Part shown: in pieces, positions 3,898 to 58,750 of the stretch
How positions within the stretch are numbered: position 1 is the first letter of the stretch
How the letters are laid out: the number at the start of each line of letters is the position of its first letter
NCBI RefSeq assembly: GCF_004010195.1
Contig: NC_057718.1
Coordinates: 67,534,408 to 67,598,407 of the forward strand
Reading direction: 5' to 3'
Length of the DNA stretch: 64,000 nt
Origin: Chiloscyllium plagiosum
Lineage: Eukaryota
Position numbers and translations under genes: made by a program
Notes under the pieces: generated by a model
The model's input: the letters and a program-made list of their open reading frames with translations, nothing else
What the model was told of the DNA's origin: nothing
Databases searched by the model: none

Positions 3898-6800
3898 CCT
3901 TGCCACTTAAAGAAAACAAACCATCAATATACAAAGATGGCTTCATTTTAAAACCACTTAGTCTTACTCTGTTATTATTACATTGGTTCTAAGCATGCAA
4001 ACATTCACTACTACGTTCTATTTCAGTTTCTTTACCCCTGCTACTGAACGACTCCATTTTTCTTCATCCAACTCTCATCAATGCATCAGCAGTTATGTTT
4101 TCTCATCCCTCCATGTGCAATAATAACTCCATCTAAACAGTCTAGAACTTTTATCCTTAAATTTCTAAAGAAACGTTAATAGGTTATGATCAGTATATAC
4201 AATCGTCTCAGAAGTATTACAGGAAATATAAATGTTGAAATGTAACGCCCAAACCAAGCTCAAGGCCTCCTTCTCAACTGTGAAATATTTCTGTTGATGA
4301 ATATTCAGTTCCTGGAGAAGTATCCAATAGATCTTTCTATCTCCTCATTCTTGTAAGAGTACAGCACTGACACTCACATCATTAATATCAATAGCCACCT
4401 TAAACGGCTTTGCATAAGGAGGTGTGGCTAATACTGGGGCAATGGTTAACAGTTTACAGGCTGTCAAATGCCTTCTGAAATTCCTTGGTCCACTGATTTT
4501 GTTTAGCACATTTTCAATAAATCAGTGAGTGGAACAACCACGCTGTTAAGATTTGGCACAAATTTCCTATAAAACCCACTCAATCTCAGGCATTCGAGTA
4601 CTGTTCTTTTCATCACCTCCCCAGTAAACTTTGTTTTCCCAATCCATGGGGCCATCTGTCCATGTCCAACAACATGGCCCAGGAATGTGACTTGGGCTTT
4701 TGTGAATTCACTCTTATCCAGGTTTATCATCAAGTCTGCCTCTCGAAGTCAATTGAACAATTCTAATAAATGTTGCCAATGATCCTTCCACTTGTGACTA
4801 AAAAATCACCAGATCATTGATGTATACCAAACAATTGGGTCATCCAGAAATGACATTATTGGTTAGCCTTTGAAATATGGCTGGCACATTTTTCATACCA
4901 AATGGCATGACTTTAATTTGGTACAGTCCATTCGATGTTACAAAAGCTGAACTTTTCCTCACTCTATCAGATAAAGATACCTGCCAGGATCCTCTGAGTA
5001 AATCCAAATAAGAAATATAAGTTTCTTGTCCCACCTTCTCCATACAGTGTTCCAAATGTGGAATCGGATATAAATCAGACTTTGTAATATCACTGACTTT
5101 GCGATTGTCTACACATAACTGTTGGGTACAATCTGGTTTTGGCACCATTACTATGGGTGAGCTCCTGTCACTGCAACTCACTTTGATTATGTTGTCTTTG
5201 AGCATGCATTCAATTTCTTTTTGAATTTGTGCCAACTTTCGAGGGTTAAGTCTATAAGCATGTTGCTTAATTGGAACACCAGCACTTCTTAGATCTACAT
5301 CATTCATAATTAGATTAGTATTTCCCAGCTTATTCCCACATATCTCCCAATGAGGTAATAATAACTCTTTCACATCATTTTGATTTTACTCTGGAAGATA
5401 ATTCAATAATTTATCCCAATTTTTGAGAATTTCCTCATTGTCCAATTTAATTTGAGGAATGTCCAATTCAAAATCCTCTGAATCTGGTTCTTCACTCTGT
5501 GCTATAACCAGTAACACACTCTCCTTTTGCTTTCCTTCCCTATCAAAATACCTTTTGAGCATATTCATATGACACACCTGTCTGCTTCCAGTTTCATCGT
5601 ATGCCGTGATACTTTTAAATGCTGTCGAGCCAACTCCCCCACTCTATTTAATCATTTCCTAAAATCTGACGCATAGTCCAAATGTGTGGTCTCTGAATTC
5701 TGACTCACCAATTTCTCCTTAATTAATTTGGGTAGCCCTCTCACCTCATGCCCAAAAACTAGTTCAACTGGACTGAATTTGGTTGATTCATTTGGCACAT
5801 CCCTAATGGCAAAAAGTGAAAACAGAATTCCTTTATCCTAATCATCTAGATAGTCTTGACTATAAACCCTTGTCATGGTCTTTAAAGTTTGATGACGCTT
5901 TTCTAAATCTTCCTGCAAATCTGTATGGTATGCAAAGGATTTGAATTGTTTTATTTCTAAGGTATGCATAACTTCCCTGAATAATTTTGATGTAAACTTT
6001 GACCCTTAATTTGAATGTATCTGTGAATAGTCCGTTTCTAGTGAAAAATTTGAGTAACTCTTCTCCGATACTTTTAGGTGTGATATTGCGTAATGGAATG
6101 GCCTTTGGAAATCTAGTGGACATATCCATTATTTTAAACAAACACTGATTCCCCTATTTATTTTAAGTAGTGGAACTGTGTAATCAATTAAAACCCTTGT
6201 GAAAGGTTCCTCAAACGCAGGGATAGGTATTAAAGATGCTAGTTTTATTACTGCCTGAGGCGTTCCAATGACCTGACACATATGACTTTTCTGGCAAAAT
6301 TCAATTACATCCTTATGCAGTTCAGAACAGTAAAAATGTTTTTGAATTTTAGCTTGAGTTTCTCTTACCCCAAATGACCTCCTAGTGATAATTTATGTGC
6401 TACCCGCAACACTTCCTTTCTATAACCCACTGGTAATACAACTTGATAAACTTCTACCCATTTTTCATCCTCCTGAATCACAGTCATAGAGTCCTACAGC
6501 ATAGAGATAGGCTTTTGGCCTAAACTGGCCCATGCTGACCAAAATGTCTATTTCCTTGCACTTGGCCCATATCCTTCTAAACTTTTTCTGTCCATATATT
6601 TGTCCAAATGCCTTTTAAATGTTGGTAATGCACCCATCTCAACCACTTTCACTGGCAGCTCATTCCATATGCATACCACTCTCTGTGTAAAGACGTTGTC
6701 CCTCAGGTTCCCTTTTATTCTTTTTCCTCTAACCTTAAACTGATGCCCTCTAGACCTTGATACCCTAACCCTGGCAATTAAGATTGAGTGCATTCACCCT

Positions 6801-8177
6801 GTTCATGCCTGTCATGATTTTATGAACTTCTATAAGATTCTCCCCTCAGTCTCCTATGCTGTAAAGAAAAAAGTCCTAGCTTGCCCAACCTCTGCCTATG
6901 ACTTAGACCCTTGACCCTTAGACCCGGCAACATCCTTGTAAATTTCTATTGCACTCTTTCCAGTTTAACAACATCCTTCCTATACCAAGGTGACCAAAAC
7001 TGAACACAATACTCCAAGTGCAGCCTCACCAACGGCCTATACAACTGCAACATAACCTCCCAACTTCTATACTCAATACTCTGACTGATGAAGGCCATTG
7101 TGCTAAAAGCCTCCTTCACTGCCCTATCTATCTGTGACTCCATTTTCAGAGAACTGTGCACCTGAACTCCACATTCCCTCTGTTCCACTACACTCCTTAA
7201 GAGCCTACCATTCAGCATGAAACTCCGACTTTGATTTAACTTTCCAAAACACAAGACCTCACACTTATCAATATTAAACTCTATTTGCCATTTATTGGCC
7301 CACTTCCCCAGCTGATCAAGGTCCTGCTGCAATTTCTGACAACCTTCCTCACTGTCCACGATACTGCCTATTTTAGTGTTATCAGTAAACTTACTAATCA
7401 TGTCTTGCACATTCTCATCCAAATCAGATAAGAAATAGACAGCAAACAGCAATAGGCCCAGCACCAATTCTTGAGGCACTCTACTAGTCATAGGCCTCCA
7501 GTCTGACAAGTATCCTTCCACTATATCCTTTGCTTCCTACCATCAAGCCAATTGTGTATCCAATTTGCCAACTCTCCTTGGATTCCATGCAATCTAATCT
7601 TCCAGAGCAGCCTACCATGTGGAATCTTATCAATGGCCATACTGAAATCCAAATAGACCACGTCTACTGCCTTGCCCTCATCAACCTTGCTGGTCACTTC
7701 ATCAAAGAACTCTAACAAATTTGTGAGGCATGATCGCCCATGCACAAAGCCACACTGACTGTTCCTCATCAAACCCCGTCTTTCCAAATGCATGTATATC
7801 TTATCTCTCAGAATCTTCTCAAGTAACTTACATGCCACAGATGTTTGGCTTACTGGTCTATAGTTCCCACGGGTTTTTTTTGCATCCCTTCTTGAATAAG
7901 TGCACAACATTCGCTACACTCTGGTCTTCAGGGATGTCAATCATGGCTAATGATGATGCAAAAATATCTGCCAGGGCCCCCGCCATTTCGTCTCTCACCC
8001 ATTGCAGTGTTCTTGTATATATCTGGTCAGGGCCACAAGATTTATCCACCTTCCTATTTTCCAAACTGTCCAACACCTCCTCTACTGTGATATGGACTGT
8101 CCCCAAGATATCACCACTAACTTCCCCAAGTCTTCATATCTTTCTCCACAGTAAGCATAGAGGAGAAACATTTGTTG

Positions 8178-28369: not shown

Positions 28370-28590
28370 TGGGCTGTGGAAAGAAAAAGGATAGAGAAAA
28401 TGGAGGAAGAGATGGAAAGGAGGAAAAATAAGGATTAGCAAATAGTAAAGAAAAGAGACCGATAAAAATAAAATTAGATAGAAAGGAATTAAAACAATAA
28501 TTAGAAAATGGTAAAGAAAAGAGATAGGTAAAAGTAAAACAGAAAAGGAAGAGAGGCACACACATACACAGAGCATAAAATAGCAAAGCA
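28370..28590 (+). repeat. A/G-rich low-complexity tract
   Basis: Strongly purine-biased with no clear period. Confidence 0.7.
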
Positions 28591-29327: not shown

Positions 29328-29554
29328 GTAAGTATGTTGAGGGGTTCTCGATGACATGCCTCGTTTAAATAATATAAACCAAAGTCCAGGCCTAAACTGA
29401 CTGCCTAGATAACTGACAAGACTGAGACTTTTCCTCAGGAGATTGCAACTGTGGAAGGAGGAGAGTACTGGACATTAGTCAGAGAAGCATTTCCAGCACT
29501 ATCAGAGAGGGTTGGGAAGTTACAATTGGGAATTTACAATTCCCAAATGGGAGA

Positions 29555-31156
29555 TGAAATAACTGCACAGAGGCCAATATCCCATCACTAAGTCACCCTT
29601 TATTTACATGTGAACATGACCAGCCAGCTCAGCCAGTCCCTAGAATGAGGACATTCTGAATATCCTGTTTCTTTTTTTTCTGATAGTCCTGTTCTTTTTT
29701 CTTTTTTTTTTCTTTTTCTTTCTTTTTTTCTTTTTTACCCCCACACTGCCGCCTAACTGCCGTAGTTCTTATTTGTCCCCAGCACCCATGTTGTGTGAGT
29801 ACAGGTGTGAGACACAGTGAAAGACACAAGGTGTACAAATCTTTATCCAATTTCCACCACCAGGAAGAAAGGAAACACCCAAGTGGCCAGTGAAAAGCAG
29901 TGCCTTTCACATCAAAGGGCAATGCTGTGTGATCAAACAGTGAAGGGGAGGGCAGGGACTAAATCAAATTGGAGTTGGAGGGGGAAATAATGCACTCCAC
30001 TCCCTGCGACGCCCACCTCTCCCTGAACAACTCCAGGGTGTTGGTGGACACCGCGTGCTCCTTCTCCAGAGACACCCGGGCCCTAACGTAACCGTGGAAG
30101 AGGGGCAGGCAGTCGGCCCTAACAACCCCCTCCACGGCCCGCTGCCTGGAATCTCCTGTTTCTTCTTTTTTAATGAAACAAGCCCTTCTCCATTTAACCC
30201 TTTAAGTACCAATGTTTCAAATAAATATTGTTGCAACTTTTACTTCTTATGTCTAACATCTTCAGCATTAACTCACTTAATTTAAGTTCACTTTATCTTA
30301 TTTCAACTTAATTTATATTTAACCCCCACCCTTACTGGAACTCTATAAAAGTTTGGCTTGAATCAAATACTACTCCGATTTGGCTGAATTCAATCTCCTG
30401 TTTCTTTTTTTAAAAAAAAATTTCAGTGCTTGGAGTTTCTGCTATGATTGACATTTTCACTGACTTGTAGTGAAAGCAATCTTTTAATAAAATGTTAATT
30501 TATGAATGTGAAATAACTCCACAGAGGTCAACGTCCTGTCACCAAATCACCCTTTATTTACGCACAGAAAGTCCTTGACACTGATCCAGCTCCCTCAGAG
30601 CCAGCTCTCAGGATCAGAATGTCTGACACTCCTGCTTTTTTCTTTGACCAGAACCTCCAAAACTCCTGTTTTTTTTTAAGTATCCATGTTGTGTGTGCAG
30701 GTGTGAGACACAGTGAAAGACACAAGGTGCACAAATCTTTATTTTTTTTAAAGGGGAAGGTCCCTGTTTGTTTTTTTTTGTTTTTTTTTCTTTTTCTTTT
30801 TCTTTTACAAAGTGCAGACAATACAGACCCAGCAAGCCCCCATCCCTCCCACCTTTCGACAATGTCCCATTTATCTTCTTTTTTTTAATTTTTTTTTTTC
30901 TTTGCTTTTTCCTTTAACCCCCACACTACCACCTAAATGCGGTAGTGCTTATTTTATCCCCAGCACCCATGGTGTGTGCGTGCAGGTGTGAGACACAGTG
31001 AAAGACACAAAGTGCACCAATCTTTATTCGGTTTCCACCACCAGGTGGAATTGAATCTCCTGTCAGCCAGGACTCTCTGATTGGCCCAGGTAAACAATCC
31101 TAATCAAGAATCTTATTCCCAATGAGATTCACCTGATCCTTTCTTCAATCACTATG
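29555..31156. mobile_element. Two LTR-like halves (29555-29667; 30507-30634 plus 31050-31156) hosting a cluster of poly(A)-tailed insertions
   Basis: tgaaataact(g/c)cacagagg...cacc(c/t)tttatttac repeated at 29555 and 30509; remainder tcagccagg...caatcacta after 31060. Confidence 0.65.
29692..30150 (-). mobile_element. Tx1-like LINE 3' end (ORF2 C-terminus, 3' UTR, poly-A)
   Basis: Minus strand SRQRAVEGVVRADCLPLFHGYVRARVSLEKEHAVSTNTLELFRERWASQGVECII; long T-tract at 29692-29736; UTR repeated at ~30680-30745 and ~30916-31044. Confidence 0.75.
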
Positions 31157-48583: not shown

Positions 48584-49433
48584 CAAAATCTAGAATTCCA
48601 AGTTCATTTTAGGATTGTTGGACTCAAGGGTGGCGAATAGTAATTGTTAGTGTCCTTTGTTTTGGGTATTGAATTCTGTTGGTTTAAACAAGGTGTGCAT
48701 TGTGTCATAATAGTTATTTCGATCATGAGCAGTTTTCTGGGTGTTGAATAAGTGAATTCTGGAGTTTTATCAAAAGTGAGCAAGGCAAAGCTGGTGAAAT
48801 TGGCAGACAAGCTGGAGTTGGGATTCCCTGGGTCTGCGAGGAAAGGGGAGATAATTACAGCAATAATTCAAAATTTAAAATTGTCAGAAGTGTCATCAGA
48901 ATCTTTGGAAATGACTAAAATTCAGTTGCAAATGAAGCAACTTGAATTGCAGGCAAAAGAAAAGGAAAGATTAGCTCTGGCAGAACAAAAGGAAAGTGAA
49001 GAGGAAATGAAACAGTTTGAATTATGTTTAAAAGCAGAGGAAAAAAGAGGAGAGGAAGAAGAAAGGCGGAAGGAGAGAGAGACTGTGAACTTCGAATATT
49101 GGCAATTAAAGAGGAGTGTCGACTTAAAATGGTGGAGATGAAGGGAGAAGGCAGGCTTACTGTGGAGGATAATGATGACGAGCAAACCCATTGTAGCCAA
49201 AGCACTGTTTGGGATCTGTTTGAATATGTCCAAGTGTTGTCTAAATTTGACGAGAAGGATATAGAAGCCTTTTTAATTTCATTTGAGAAAATGGCTAAAC
49301 AACTGAAGTAGCTGGTGACCAGGTGGGTTTTGTTGATCCAAACAAAGTTGGTAGGTAGAGTTAGTGAGGTATGTGCATCACTATCAGAGGAGGTATCTGG
49401 AGAGTATAAGGAGGTGAAAAAAGCCATCTTAAA

Positions 49434-52311
49434 TAAATTAAAGTGCATTTATTGCAATGCAAGGGTCCTAACATGGAAGGCAGATGAACTCAGGGCATGG
49501 TTAGGAACATCGGACCTGGATAACATAGCAATTACAGAAATATGGCTCAAGGATGGGCAGGACTGGCAGCTTAATGTTCCAGGATACAAAATGCTAAGGA
49601 AGGATAGGAAGGGAGGCAAGAGAGGAGGGGGAGTGGTATTTTTGATAAGGGATAGCATTACAGCTGTGCTGAGGGAAGATATTCCTAGAAATACATCCAG
49701 GGAAGTTATTTGGGTGGAAATGAGAAATAAGAAAGGGATGATCACCTTACTGGGATTGTATTATAGACCCCCTAATAGTCAGAGAGAAATTGAGAAACAA
49801 ATTTGTAAGGAGATCTCAGTTATCTGTCTGATTAATAGGGTGGTTATGGCAGGGCATTTTAACTTTCCAAACATAGACTGGGACTGCCACAGTGTTAAGG
49901 GTTGAGATGAAGAGGAATTTGTTAAGTGTGTACAAGAAAATTTTCAGATTCAGTATGTGGATGTACCTACTAGAGAAGGTGCAAAACTTGACCTACTCAT
50001 GGGAAATAAGGCAGGGCAGGTGACTGAGGTGTCAGTGGGGGAGCACTTTGGGGCCAGGGACCATAATACTACTAGATTTAAAATAGTGATGGAAAAGGAT
50101 AGACCAGATCTAAAAGTTGAAATTCTAAATTGGAGAAAGGCTAATTTTGACGGTATTAGGCAAGAACTTTCAAAAGCCTATTGGGGGCAAATGTTCGCAG
50201 GTAAAGGGATGGCTGGAAAATGGGGAGCCTTCAGAAATGAGATAATGAGAATCCAGAGAAAGTATATTCCTGTTAGGGTGAAAGGGAACGCTGGTTGGTA
50301 CAGGACATGCTGGATGAATAAAGTAATTGAGGGTTTGGTTAAGAAAAAGAAGGAAACATATGTCAGGTATAGACCGGATAGATCGAGTGAATCCTTAGAA
50401 GAGTATAAAGGAAGTAGGAGTATACTTAAGAGGGAAATCAGGAGGGCAAAAAGGGGACATGAGATAGCTTTGGCAAATAGAGTAAAGGAGAATCCAAAGA
50501 GTTTTTACAAATACATTAAGGACAAAAGGGTAACTGGGGAGAGAATAGGATCCCTCAAAGATCAGCAAGGCGGGCTTTGTGTGGAGCTGCAGAAAATGGG
50601 GGAGATACTAAATGAGTATTTTGCATCAATATTTACTGTGGAAAAGGATATGGAAGATATCGAAAGTAGCAAAATAGATGGTGACATCTTGCAAAATATC
50701 CATATTACAGAGGAGGAAGTACTGGATGTCTTGAAATGCATAAAGGTGGATAAGTACCCAGGACCTGATCAGGCGTACCCTAGAACTCTGTGGGAAGCTA
50801 GAGAAGAGATTGCAGGGCCTCTTACTGAAATATTTGTATCATCGATAGTCACAGGTGAGGTGCCTGAAGACTAGAGGTTGACTAATGTGGAGCCATTGTT
50901 TAAGAAGGGTGGTAACGACATGCCAGGGAACTATAGACCGTGAGCCTGATGTCGGTGGTGGGCAAGTTGTTGGAGGGAATCCTGAGGGACAGGATGTACA
51001 TGTATTTGGCAAAGCAAGGACTGATTAGGGATAGTCAACATGGCTTTGTGCAAGGGAAATCATGTCTCACAAACTTGATTGAGATTTTTGAAGAAGTAAC
51101 AAAGTGGATTGATGAGGGCAGACTGATGGATGTGATCTATATGGACTTCAGTAAGGAGTTCGACAAGGTTTCCCATGGGAGACTGATTAGCAAGGTTAGA
51201 TCTCATGGAATACAGGGAGAACTAGTCATTTGGATACAGAACTGGCTCAAAGGTAGAAGACAGAGGATGGTGGTGGAGAATTGTTTTTCAGACTGGAGGC
51301 CTGTGACCAGTGGAGTGCCACAAGGATTGGTGCTGGGCCCTCTACGTTTTGTCATTTACATAAATGATTTTGATGTGAGCATAAGAGGTATAGTTAGTAA
51401 GTTTGCAGATGACACCAAAATTGGAGGTGTAGTGGACAGCGAAGAAGGTCACCTCAGATTATAACAGGATCTTGATCAGATGGGCCAATGGGCTGAGAAT
51501 TGGCAGATGGAGTTTATTTCAGATAAATGCGAGGTGCTGCTTTTTGGGAAAGCAAATCTTAGCAGGACTTATACACTTAATGGTAAGGTCCTACAGAGTG
51601 TTGCTGAACACAGAGACCTTGGAGTGCAGGTTCATAGCTCCTTGAAAGTGGAGTCGCAGGTAGATAGGATAGTGAAGAAGGCGTTTGGTATGCTTTCTTT
51701 TATTGGTCAGAGTATTGAGTACAGGAGTTGGGAGGTCATGTTACGGCTGTACAGGACATTGGTTAGGCCACTGTTGGAATTATGCGGGCAATTCTGGTCT
51801 CCTTCCTATCGGAAAGATGTTGTGAAACTTGAAAGGGTTCAGAAATGATTTACAAGGATGTTGCCAGGGTTGGAGGATTTGAGCTATTGGGGAAAGGCTG
51901 AACAGGCTGGGACTGTTTTCCCTGGAGCGTCGGAGGCTGAGGGGTGACCTTATAGAGGTTTACAAAATCATGCAGGGCATAGATAGGATAAATAGACAAA
52001 GTCTTTTCCCTGGGGTGGGGGAGTCCAGACCTAGAGGGCATAGGTTTAGGGTGAGAGGGGAAAGATATAAAAGGGGCAACTTTTTCACGCAGAGAGTGGT
52101 ATGTGTATGGAATGAGCTGCCAGAGGAAGTGGTGGAGGCTGGTACAATTGCAACATTTAAAAGGCATTTGGATGAGCATATGAATAGGAAGGGTTTGGAG
52201 GGATATTGACCGGATGCCAGCGGGTGGGACAGATTGGGTTGGGTATCTGGTCGGCATGGATGGGTTGGACGGAAGGGTCTGTTTCCATGCTGTACATCTC
52301 TATGACTCTAA
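49434..52311 (+). mobile_element. CR1 with essentially complete but disabled ORF2 (APE endonuclease + RT), nested in gag
   Basis: LKCIYCNAR..IAITEIWL..YYRPP..GHFNFP; ORFs 49957-50874, 50940-51464 (KFADDTK) and 51480-51848; few stops; ctatga tail. Confidence 0.96.
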
Positions 52312-56959: not shown

Positions 56960-58750
56960 GTGTGAGTGAAAGTTGAAAATGATGCTGGAGAAGTAGTAAT
57001 AGGGAACAAAGAAATGGCTAAGGAACTGAACAAGTACTTTGCATCAGTCTTCACAGAGTCAGGGGCAAAGGTCAGTATGGTGGCCATCACCAAGGAGAAA
57101 GTGCTAGAAGAACTGAATGGCCTAAAGGTGGATAAATTACTTGCACCAGATGGACAATTTCCCAGCTATCTGAAAGAGACACCTAGAGAGATAGTGGAGG
57201 CGGTTAGTAGTAACCTTTCAGAAATGACTGGAGCCAAGGAGGGTCCCAGAGGACAGGAAAATCCCTAATGTAACCCAACTATTTAAGAAGGAAGTATGGC
57301 AAAAGACTGGAAATTACAGGCTGATTAGCCTGACCTTGGTCATTGGTAAAATTTTGGAGTCCATTGTGAAGGATGAGATTTCTGAATATTTGGAAGTGCA
57401 TGGTAAAATAGGGCAAAGTCAGCATAGTTTCATTGTTGGGGGGTCATGCTTGAAAAATCTGTTAGTATTCTTTGAGGCGGTAACAAGCAGGTTAGACCAA
57501 GGGAAGCCAATGGGTTTTGTCTACCTGGACATCCAGAATGCCTTTGACAAGATGCCACACATGAGGCTACTGAGTAAAATAAGAAACCATAGTGTTAAAG
57601 GCAAGGTGCTAGCACAGATAGAAGATTGGCCATCTGGCAGAAAGCAGAAACTGGGGATAAAAGGGTTTCTCCCAGAATGACAGCCGGTGATTAGTGGTGT
57701 TCCACAAGAATCAGTGTTGGGACCACAACATTTCACTTTATATAACAGTGATCAAGATGAAGGAATTGAGAGCATTCTGGCTATATTTGCAGATGATATA
57801 GGTGGAGAGGCTGTTAGCATTGAGGAGTTGGGAGGCTGCAGAAGAATTTAGACAGACTAGGAGAGTGGGCAAAGAAGTGGCAGATGAAATATAATGTGGG
57901 AAAATGTGAGGTCATGCACTTTGATAAGAAGAACAGAGGCATAGACTATTTTCTAAATGGGGAGAAAATTTGGAACTTTGAAGTGCCAAAGGTACTTGGG
58001 AGTCCCAGTCCAGGATTCTCTCAAGGTAAACTTGCAGACTGAGTCGGCAGTTTGGAAGGCAAATATAATGTTGGCATTTAATTCACGAGGACTGGAATAT
58101 AAACGCAAGAATGTATTTCTGAGGTTTATAAAACTCTGGTCAGATCACATCAAGTCCACAGCATTTCTGACAATGAATTCCACAGATACACCACTCTCTG
58201 GCTAAAGAAATTTCTTCTTATTTCCATTCTAAAGGGTCTTCCCATACCTCAGGAAGGATGTGCTGGCCCTGGTGCGGGTTCAGAGGAAGTTCACGAGAAT
58301 GATCCCAGGAATGAAAGGCTTAACATGTGAGGAATGTTTGAAGACTCTGAGTCGATACTCATGGAGTCGAAGGATGAGGGGGGATCTAATTGAAACTTAC
58401 AGAATACTGAGTAGCCTGGACAGATGGATGTTAGGAAGATGGGAGGAGAGACTAGGACCCAAGTGCACAGCCTAAGAGTAAAGGGAAGACCCTTTAGAAT
58501 GGAAATAAGAAGAAATTTCTTTAGCCAGAGAGTGGTGTATCTATGGAATTCATTGTCAGAAATGCTGTGAAGGCCAGGTCATTGAGTATATTTAAGACAG
58601 AAATGGATGGGTTCTTGATTGTCAAGAGGATCAAGGGTTATGGGAGAAAGCAGGAGAATGGGGTTGAGAAACTTATCAGCCATGATTGAATGGTGGAGCA
58701 GACTTGATGGGCCAAATGGCTGAATTTTTGCTCCAATGTCTTATGGTTGT
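56960..58750 (+). mobile_element. CR1 RT nested in Gypsy B 3' region
   Basis: ORFs 56966-57268, 57336-57680 (VYLDIQNAFDK) and 58260-58475. Confidence 0.9.

Follow-up and report, generated by a model that had tools for sequence, protein, structure and literature searches.

In the stretch of Chiloscyllium plagiosum DNA analyzed here (64,000 nucleotides, hereafter the window), one solo LTR is split in two by a stack of tailed insertions. Across both strands of the 64 kb, only 10 CCTG motifs are followed by a T-tract, and seven of these fall within this 1.1 kb, on one strand. As listed in a preliminary description of the sequence, the seven motifs end at 29667, 29691, 30158, 30400, 30634, 30668 and 30766, and the host resumes after GAATCTCCTG, which ends at 31062. 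We read the following features.

29550-29554: left 5-bp TSD of the host solo LTR, GGAGA
29555-31156: host solo LTR, Gypsy-like, one element in two parts, opened at its predicted TATA box
29555-29667, minus strand: R/U5 half of the host LTR (variant A), up to the target CCTG, by alignment
29668-29736, minus strand: A-rich tail of insertion 1
29680-29691, minus strand: 12-nt target piece of another LTR variant, between two tracts of this tail
29737-30149, minus strand: 5'-truncated Tx1 copy (family a), ORF2 C-terminal codons and 3' UTR
30149-30161: TSD copy of the host target, differing from 29658-29670 at one position
30159-30391, minus strand: insertion 2, a tailed fragment (30172-30391) of an older repeat family
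30392-30403: TSD copy of the host target
30401-30634, minus strand: tailed piece, putatively transduced from G000:C4:72832187-72832412
30421-30508, minus strand: unique flank within this piece, ending in the donor LTR's own TSD, GAATG
30509-30634, minus strand: R/U5 half of LTR variant B within the same piece
30635-30860, minus strand: series of short tailed pieces
30644-30668, minus strand: target piece of an LTR variant
about 30680-30742, minus strand: family-a 3' UTR fragment
30751-30766, minus strand: short piece in the tailed series
30806-30860, minus strand: family-b fragment
30861-30875: probable degenerate TSD copy of the host target, read by eye
30876-31055, minus strand: last insertion, a tail plus a family-a 3' end (30916-31045)
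31053-31156, minus strand: final TSD and U3 half of the host LTR, CCAAT box included, by comparison with L023 and L123
31157-31161: right TSD copy of the host solo LTR, GGAGC

The interrupted LTR and its passengers

The host LTR has TG...CA ends, a 5-bp TSD both in the window and at L101, and a polypurine tract (PPT) in L021, L115 and L123. In L123, the tract lies just before an uninterrupted copy of 236 nt, to which 29555-29667 aligns at 86% over 58 nt. Read in its sense direction, the 236-nt LTR has its CCAAT box at 76 and TATAA at 102, followed by the target CAGGAG at 108; a poly(A) signal lies near 188. The LINE insertions lie in sense orientation relative to the LTR and, judged by position and layout, not by a mapped start, their target is the predicted LTR TATA box; the preliminary description contained neither point. 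In the last TSD region of the window (31053-31156), 10 nt with the TATA box are absent, between two CTG microhomologies. Near-intact 20-mer targets number only 5508 in the 3.56-Gb genome.

Upstream of the LTR in L123 we found Pfam matches to RNase H, an integrase zinc domain and rve, in that order; all three are weak and below curated cut-offs, and the order alone is compatible with BEL or ERV. We call the host element Gypsy-like, partly on integrase motifs that we take to be those of Gypsy. A homolog search with the 86-aa host integrase tail returned no matches.

The 3' UTR is present three times, as first described, in non-identical copies: a common block of about 60 nt gives 57/61, 55/63 and 56/63, and copy 1 matches copy 3 at 113/130 positions. 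The first Tx1-like copy does lie between the near-duplicates 29658-29670 and 30149-30161. At the 5' junction of the last insertion, 12 nt (31044-31055) repeat the adjacent sequence of the element in inverted orientation, resembling a second-strand-synthesis snap-back. About 1 kb to the left of the stack, 28410-28539 holds two purine-rich 64-nt copies that are 80% alike.

One piece of the stack can be traced. Positions 30421-30634 match C4:72832187-72832412 at 96% over 225 nt (flank 84/89, LTR part 125/127), a locus at which a solo LTR, bounded by its own 5-bp TSD, is embedded in unique DNA. Of this LTR the window carries the R/U5 half only, together with its downstream TSD, 88 nt of flank and a terminal tail, from which we infer 3' read-through and transduction. 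The donor RNA is beyond reconstruction because the inserts now present at the C4 locus differ from those beside its window copy. The two LTR-like copies noted earlier are real in that the halves starting at 29555 and 30509 align (85% over 53 nt), but the second is a piece of the C4 solo LTR and not an independent broken target; several CCTG/T junctions were therefore carried in and not regenerated here. The preliminary description had taken all seven as insertions made on CCTG, a count that has to be reduced: by our reading, only the motifs at 30158, 30400, 31062 and the degenerate 30861-30875 are host TSD copies of the motif at 29667, whereas three others (29691, 30634 and 30668) correspond to different LTR variants and probably arrived with donor RNA. 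The 12-nt piece at 29680-29691 is probably a 3' transduction, and the same layout is found at TSD-proven non-LTR sites, for example L068. Short LTR target pieces between two tails occur inside TSD pairs at non-LTR sites (L068 and L081 among them), which shows that the donor's target travels with the RNA.

The earlier suggestion that other RNAs reach the same site holds for the C4 piece, the older repeat fragment and a second tailed family, family b, to which 30806-30860 belongs. Family b, known from its non-coding part only, has the same site: CCTGK lies within 3-30 nt of up to 380 of its 721 3' ends (a few counted twice), against a chance level of 6.6%. Family-b junctions often retain CCTG(T/G)TTATA and then have almost no tail (L061, L031, L099). 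The junction sequences suggest that the family-b nick lies deeper in the TATA box, by a few bases, than that of family a. Of the two stretches singled out for identification in the preliminary description, 30806-30875 divides into family b and, at 30861-30875, a degenerate TSD, and 30172-30390 is assigned to an older repeat family, but the donor of the latter was not recovered. That family has 101 candidates, whose best other matches to 30172-30391 reach 70-80%; no donor was found among the 40 of 101 that were scored. Four homologues (L119-L122, read among 40 listed) are internal pieces without a tail, and coding-like remnants lie upstream of the repeat in them.

The inserted element and its preferred site

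The tailed unit is a Tx1-clade LINE of the Tx1L lineage. Positions 29737-30149 are 92-93% identical to many genomic copies (5041 candidates in the 3.56-Gb genome) and run on into the ORF2 C-terminus in longer copies such as L016; L013 joins a 5' end of the L102 type and the window's 3' end in one element of about 7 kb. Copies of family a show a poly(A) tail, 5' truncation and TSD. L102 (on C6, its 3' end masked by N) is a near-full-length copy, frameshifted and with stops, which carries an ORF1 region, an APE endonuclease (EN) and a reverse transcriptase (RT). Its ORF2 matches RT PF00078 (E 4.5e-33) and, N-terminal to this, EN PF03372 (E 0.0013, below cut-off); the EN is 38% identical to that of Tx1L and contains GDFN and SDH motifs. 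In family-a ORF2, a C-terminal zinc motif matches zf-RVT (E 0.00027, below cut-off). A CCHC knuckle, CX2CX4HX4C, was seen by eye in ORF1 (about 1741-1791 of L102), and the ORF1 pieces gave no Pfam match. In this single copy, the EN hairpin loop (L102:3980-4040) is three residues shorter than in the Tx1L, turtle and sturgeon proteins, and N stands in place of a catalytic D. GC-rich tandem repeats in the 5' UTR before ORF1 (L102:400-1140) are a candidate internal promoter.

The preliminary assignment to the Tx1 clade is supported by the placement of this near-full-length copy. ORF2 of L102 is 51% identical to Tx1 ORF2 (P14381) over the whole 948-aa query, the best full-length named match. In the tree (IQ-TREE, 41 rows, the short row P0027 being omitted) it shares a 100/100 clade with Xenopus Tx1L, turtle proteins, one sturgeon protein and one unnamed row; an alligator protein and the teleost proteins lie outside. 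The outgroup is long and poor, the root serves for drawing only, and no row bears the name Keno, Kibi, Koshi or Dewa. Elsewhere in the window, broken LINEs whose EN and RT regions match Pfam domains, at 48915-51464 (plus strand), 4840-5382 and 6946-7533 (minus strand) and 57228-57677 (plus strand), are unrelated to the Tx1 family (at most 26% to tree rows). Presumably they are CR1/L2-like.

Tailed pieces start at many points of the 3' UTR or LTR R (window position about 30680, L055, L085, L105), and the tails at many loci are mixed T/C tracts. Apparently, RT either initiates on RNAs whose 3' ends are heterogeneous or slips as it begins.

Site preference was evaluated on 72 3' ends, drawn in position order from the first 80 or so of 636 exact pattern matches; this sample favours one subfamily, because all its members match one exact 25-mer, and retains the near-duplicate loci L038/L040 and L059/L060. 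An exact target 8-mer is present no more than 60 nt from the tail at 26/72 ends, and one with at most one mismatch at 40/72, compared with 0.2 and 5.2 in shuffles and 0/31 and 1/31 at other T-tracts of the window. At 5' junctions, it is exact in 12/67 and within one mismatch in 24/67 (0.16% and 2.3% of random 31-mers). Specificity is exaggerated by the tail-side counts, since target pieces of the donor are transduced together with the element (L055, L064, L067, L068, L081). The cleanest test is that of the U3 half, since neither donor read-through nor 3' transduction can supply U3. We found it on the 5' side, in the same orientation and within 1 kb, at 23/72 ends (32%), 31 being unresolved and 18 resolved without U3. 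The wrong side in the same orientation gave 0, the opposite strand 3 and 1, and window tiles 2/61. This fraction lies above the more than 20% of flanks used to define target-specific Tx1 families (PMC4494074). Furthermore, a family neighbour lies on the same strand at 49/72 ends and on the opposite strand at 0, and any LTR piece on the same strand at 42/72. An automatic tail-side classifier, which left 43/72 unclassified, was used for examples only; for family a, motif plus 3'-end matches number 546, a count without a matching denominator.

A TSD was detected at 28/67 sites, mostly of 13-15 nt where clean, and by script none at 39/67. TSD-proven insertions also occur at degenerate non-LTR sites (L068, L073, L079, L081, L091, L098, L100), several of which have a loose CTG(T/G)TT-like core. 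The site-specific endonuclease first proposed thus holds as a strong preference and fails as an absolute rule. This specificity is read from old insertions, shaped by selection. At L067 and L090, insertions lie at the same position of another repeat, where the shared flank ends in a CTGTT-like core; this position is possibly a second recurrent target. Whole stacks also occur duplicated in tandem, 0.25-4 kb apart (L038/L039/L040, L059/L060, L092).

How the stack may have grown

Very probably, the locus is explained by a LINE of the Tx1L lineage with a preferred site at the LTR TATA box, a target rebuilt by the TSD, stacking, transduction from donors and a second family using the same site. An APE endonuclease and RT would carry out target-primed reverse transcription at about CTCCTG(T/G)TT(AT)^, cutting the strand opposite the TATA box of the 236-nt LTR; the TSD boundaries are observed and the nick is presumed. 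A TSD of 13-15 nt would leave a complete target, TATA box included, 5' of each new copy. Because the target is rebuilt in full, later copies would land at the same place and give head-to-tail stacks in LTR sense; stacking is observed, and its order would follow from the model. Preferred insertion in this LTR family, with regeneration by TSD and tandem stacking, had been anticipated in the preliminary description. Donor copies would sit in the same LTRs and their RNA would often read past the tail into LTR R/U5 or beyond, moving donor target pieces and flanks to new sites, as seen for C4 and the TSD-bracketed cases. In view of the C4 transduction and the co-carried target pieces, the stack would therefore represent about four events: a family-a copy, the tailed fragment of the older repeat, a composite run with the C4 piece and a final family-a copy. 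Loss of the TATA box may then have ended its growth.

An alternative would place the specificity in the state of the site: an LTR promoter bound by TBP/TFIID or free of nucleosomes, with T-rich priming, would attract an L1-like relaxed endonuclease. The TATA box does offer a TTT/A step like the L1 consensus 5'-TTTT/AA (PMC1950540), and the off-target TSDs are similar only loosely. However, CTG(T/G)TT-like cores recur at the non-LTR sites L073, L091 and L098, TSD copies without U3 context still have further tails after them, and the EN of Tx1L, the closest named relative, is sequence-specific in vitro (PMC1950540); we regard a dependence on site state as improbable. Still less credible is hitch-hiking, in which one LINE-carrying LTR or a chimeric RNA of LINE plus target was amplified. 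Frequent 3' transduction of target pieces fits this idea and inflates the tail-side count, but differing 5' truncation points are each followed by the target and U3, at least two LTR variants were hit, family-a copies are about 90-94% alike as against about 70-88% for LTR copies, and U3 is beyond the reach of 3' transduction, so that hitch-hiking is already largely refuted. Local tandem duplication or misassembly of a single insertion has the least to recommend it: such duplicates occur elsewhere (L092, L059/L060) and contigs from two other sequencing runs stop at 31062, none spanning the full stack, but the three UTR copies are 7-13% apart with different ends, the pieces between them are unrelated, one being traced to C4, and both runs contain the unique flanks and 30152-30364 at flank-like depth.

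Transcription, related systems and significance

Full-length family-a copies start with a head of about 50-65 nt that resembles LTR R, preceded by a variable portion of the family's 3' region. Head and R are only modestly similar (their score was equalled by 4 and 7 of 2000 shuffles, with gap costs chosen after seeing the data); in L033 and L090, bridging pieces connect the head with a complete R that extends as far as the target. The joint between 3' region and head occurs at 119 places in the genome. Among 17 copies selected by this joint, the extension measures between 23 and more than 300 nt and stops at differing points; by eye, CCTG lies at most 12 nt from the end in 7 of 16 visible ends, and another tail stands directly before 15 of 16. 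Of 10 heads identified without recourse to the exact joint pattern, 9 carry an extension of this type. Splicing was ruled out as the source of the head junction, by eye, as no GT donor is present at the joint.

These extensions imply that master RNAs began upstream of the head. As to what supplied them, the LTR promoter is our tentative first choice; general read-through comes next, as a rather doubtful one, and a promoter in the 3' region like that of HeT-A, argued by analogy, appears unlikely. In poly(A) single-cell RNA reads (about 2% of one run; a second set yielded no alignments), a sense-strand signal is seen at family level on the Tx1 3' UTR and LTR R/U5, with no position at which many molecules start or end. 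RNA depth relative to DNA depth is of the same order on U3, R/U5 and LINE, about 2.5e-4 to 9e-4. These reads lend no support to transcription starting after the TATA box, and the signal could stem from oligo-dT that primed on tails in genomic DNA.

We may also hypothesize, with some diffidence, that the LINE is a parasite of promoters: lacking a fixed start of its own, it would land downstream of the LTR TATA box in sense, the TSD would rebuild the TATA box upstream, and the LTR promoter would transcribe the whole stack. The R-like head and the variable 3' region of an upstream copy would then be a record of LTR transcription.

Parts of this arrangement have precedents. Tx1L of Xenopus laevis inserts in the DNA transposon Tx1D (PMC1950540; PMC4494074). 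The shark element belongs to the same lineage, shares the EN-RT-zinc layout and likewise parasitises another transposon at one site; its target, in contrast, is a predicted LTR TATA box, used by preference where Tx1L uses its site near-exclusively, and its EN hairpin loop is shorter by three residues in L102, the one copy aligned. Two crocodilian Tx1 families have been found in LTR retrotransposons (PMC4494074) and have in common with ours this type of target and tandem insertions. Those families are reported to cluster with Keno, and the main text of that study gives no insertion position within the LTR element; the alligator protein in our tree, outside the Tx1L clade, is unlabelled as to either family. 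Tx1-Mar and SINEU in Mariner-N4_AMi, for which transcription from the flanking target was proposed (PMC4494074), also combine several families and passenger RNAs at one site with 5' extensions derived from the target. Their heads derive from U1/U2 and their target is a Mariner, whereas the shark head is LTR-R-like and the site would be a canonical Pol II core promoter, entered in sense. Set beside the Keno/Tx1-Mar group (including Tx1-8_Crp and Tx1-4_AMi), the shark head resembles LTR R, with a modest score. HeT-A of Drosophila, whose promoter was shown to lie in its 3' end (PMC1636488), shares head-to-tail arrays and 5' ends carrying sequence from the 3' end of an upstream copy, but is telomeric, without a target motif or TSD.

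That Tx1 elements insert in another transposon, even in LTR elements, is thus already in print. We came across no publication that describes a Tx1 family at an LTR TATA box, nor one that deals with Tx1 targets in cartilaginous fish; such cases may be described in Repbase Reports, in Kojima and Fujiwara 2004, in Christensen 2000 or in the supplements of PMC4494074. What is new lies in the detail: the Tx1L lineage, a TATA-box site entered in sense, a probably target-derived head and a traced donor.

The family offers a natural, high-copy APE endonuclease of the Tx1L lineage whose target has changed to a Pol II core promoter, and hundreds to thousands of junctions from which its specificity can be read, with the short hairpin loop as a candidate determinant. 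It is relevant to annotation that stacks of this kind inactivate or rewire LTR promoters and carry flanking DNA from one chromosome to another. If the borrowing of promoters is true, it would answer, for family a, how target-specific Tx1 elements are transcribed; selection on the choice of target would then act through expression in addition to the benefit of a safe haven, and each stack would serve as a small factory that produces chimeric, transduced RNA up to the loss of its TATA box, as in the window.
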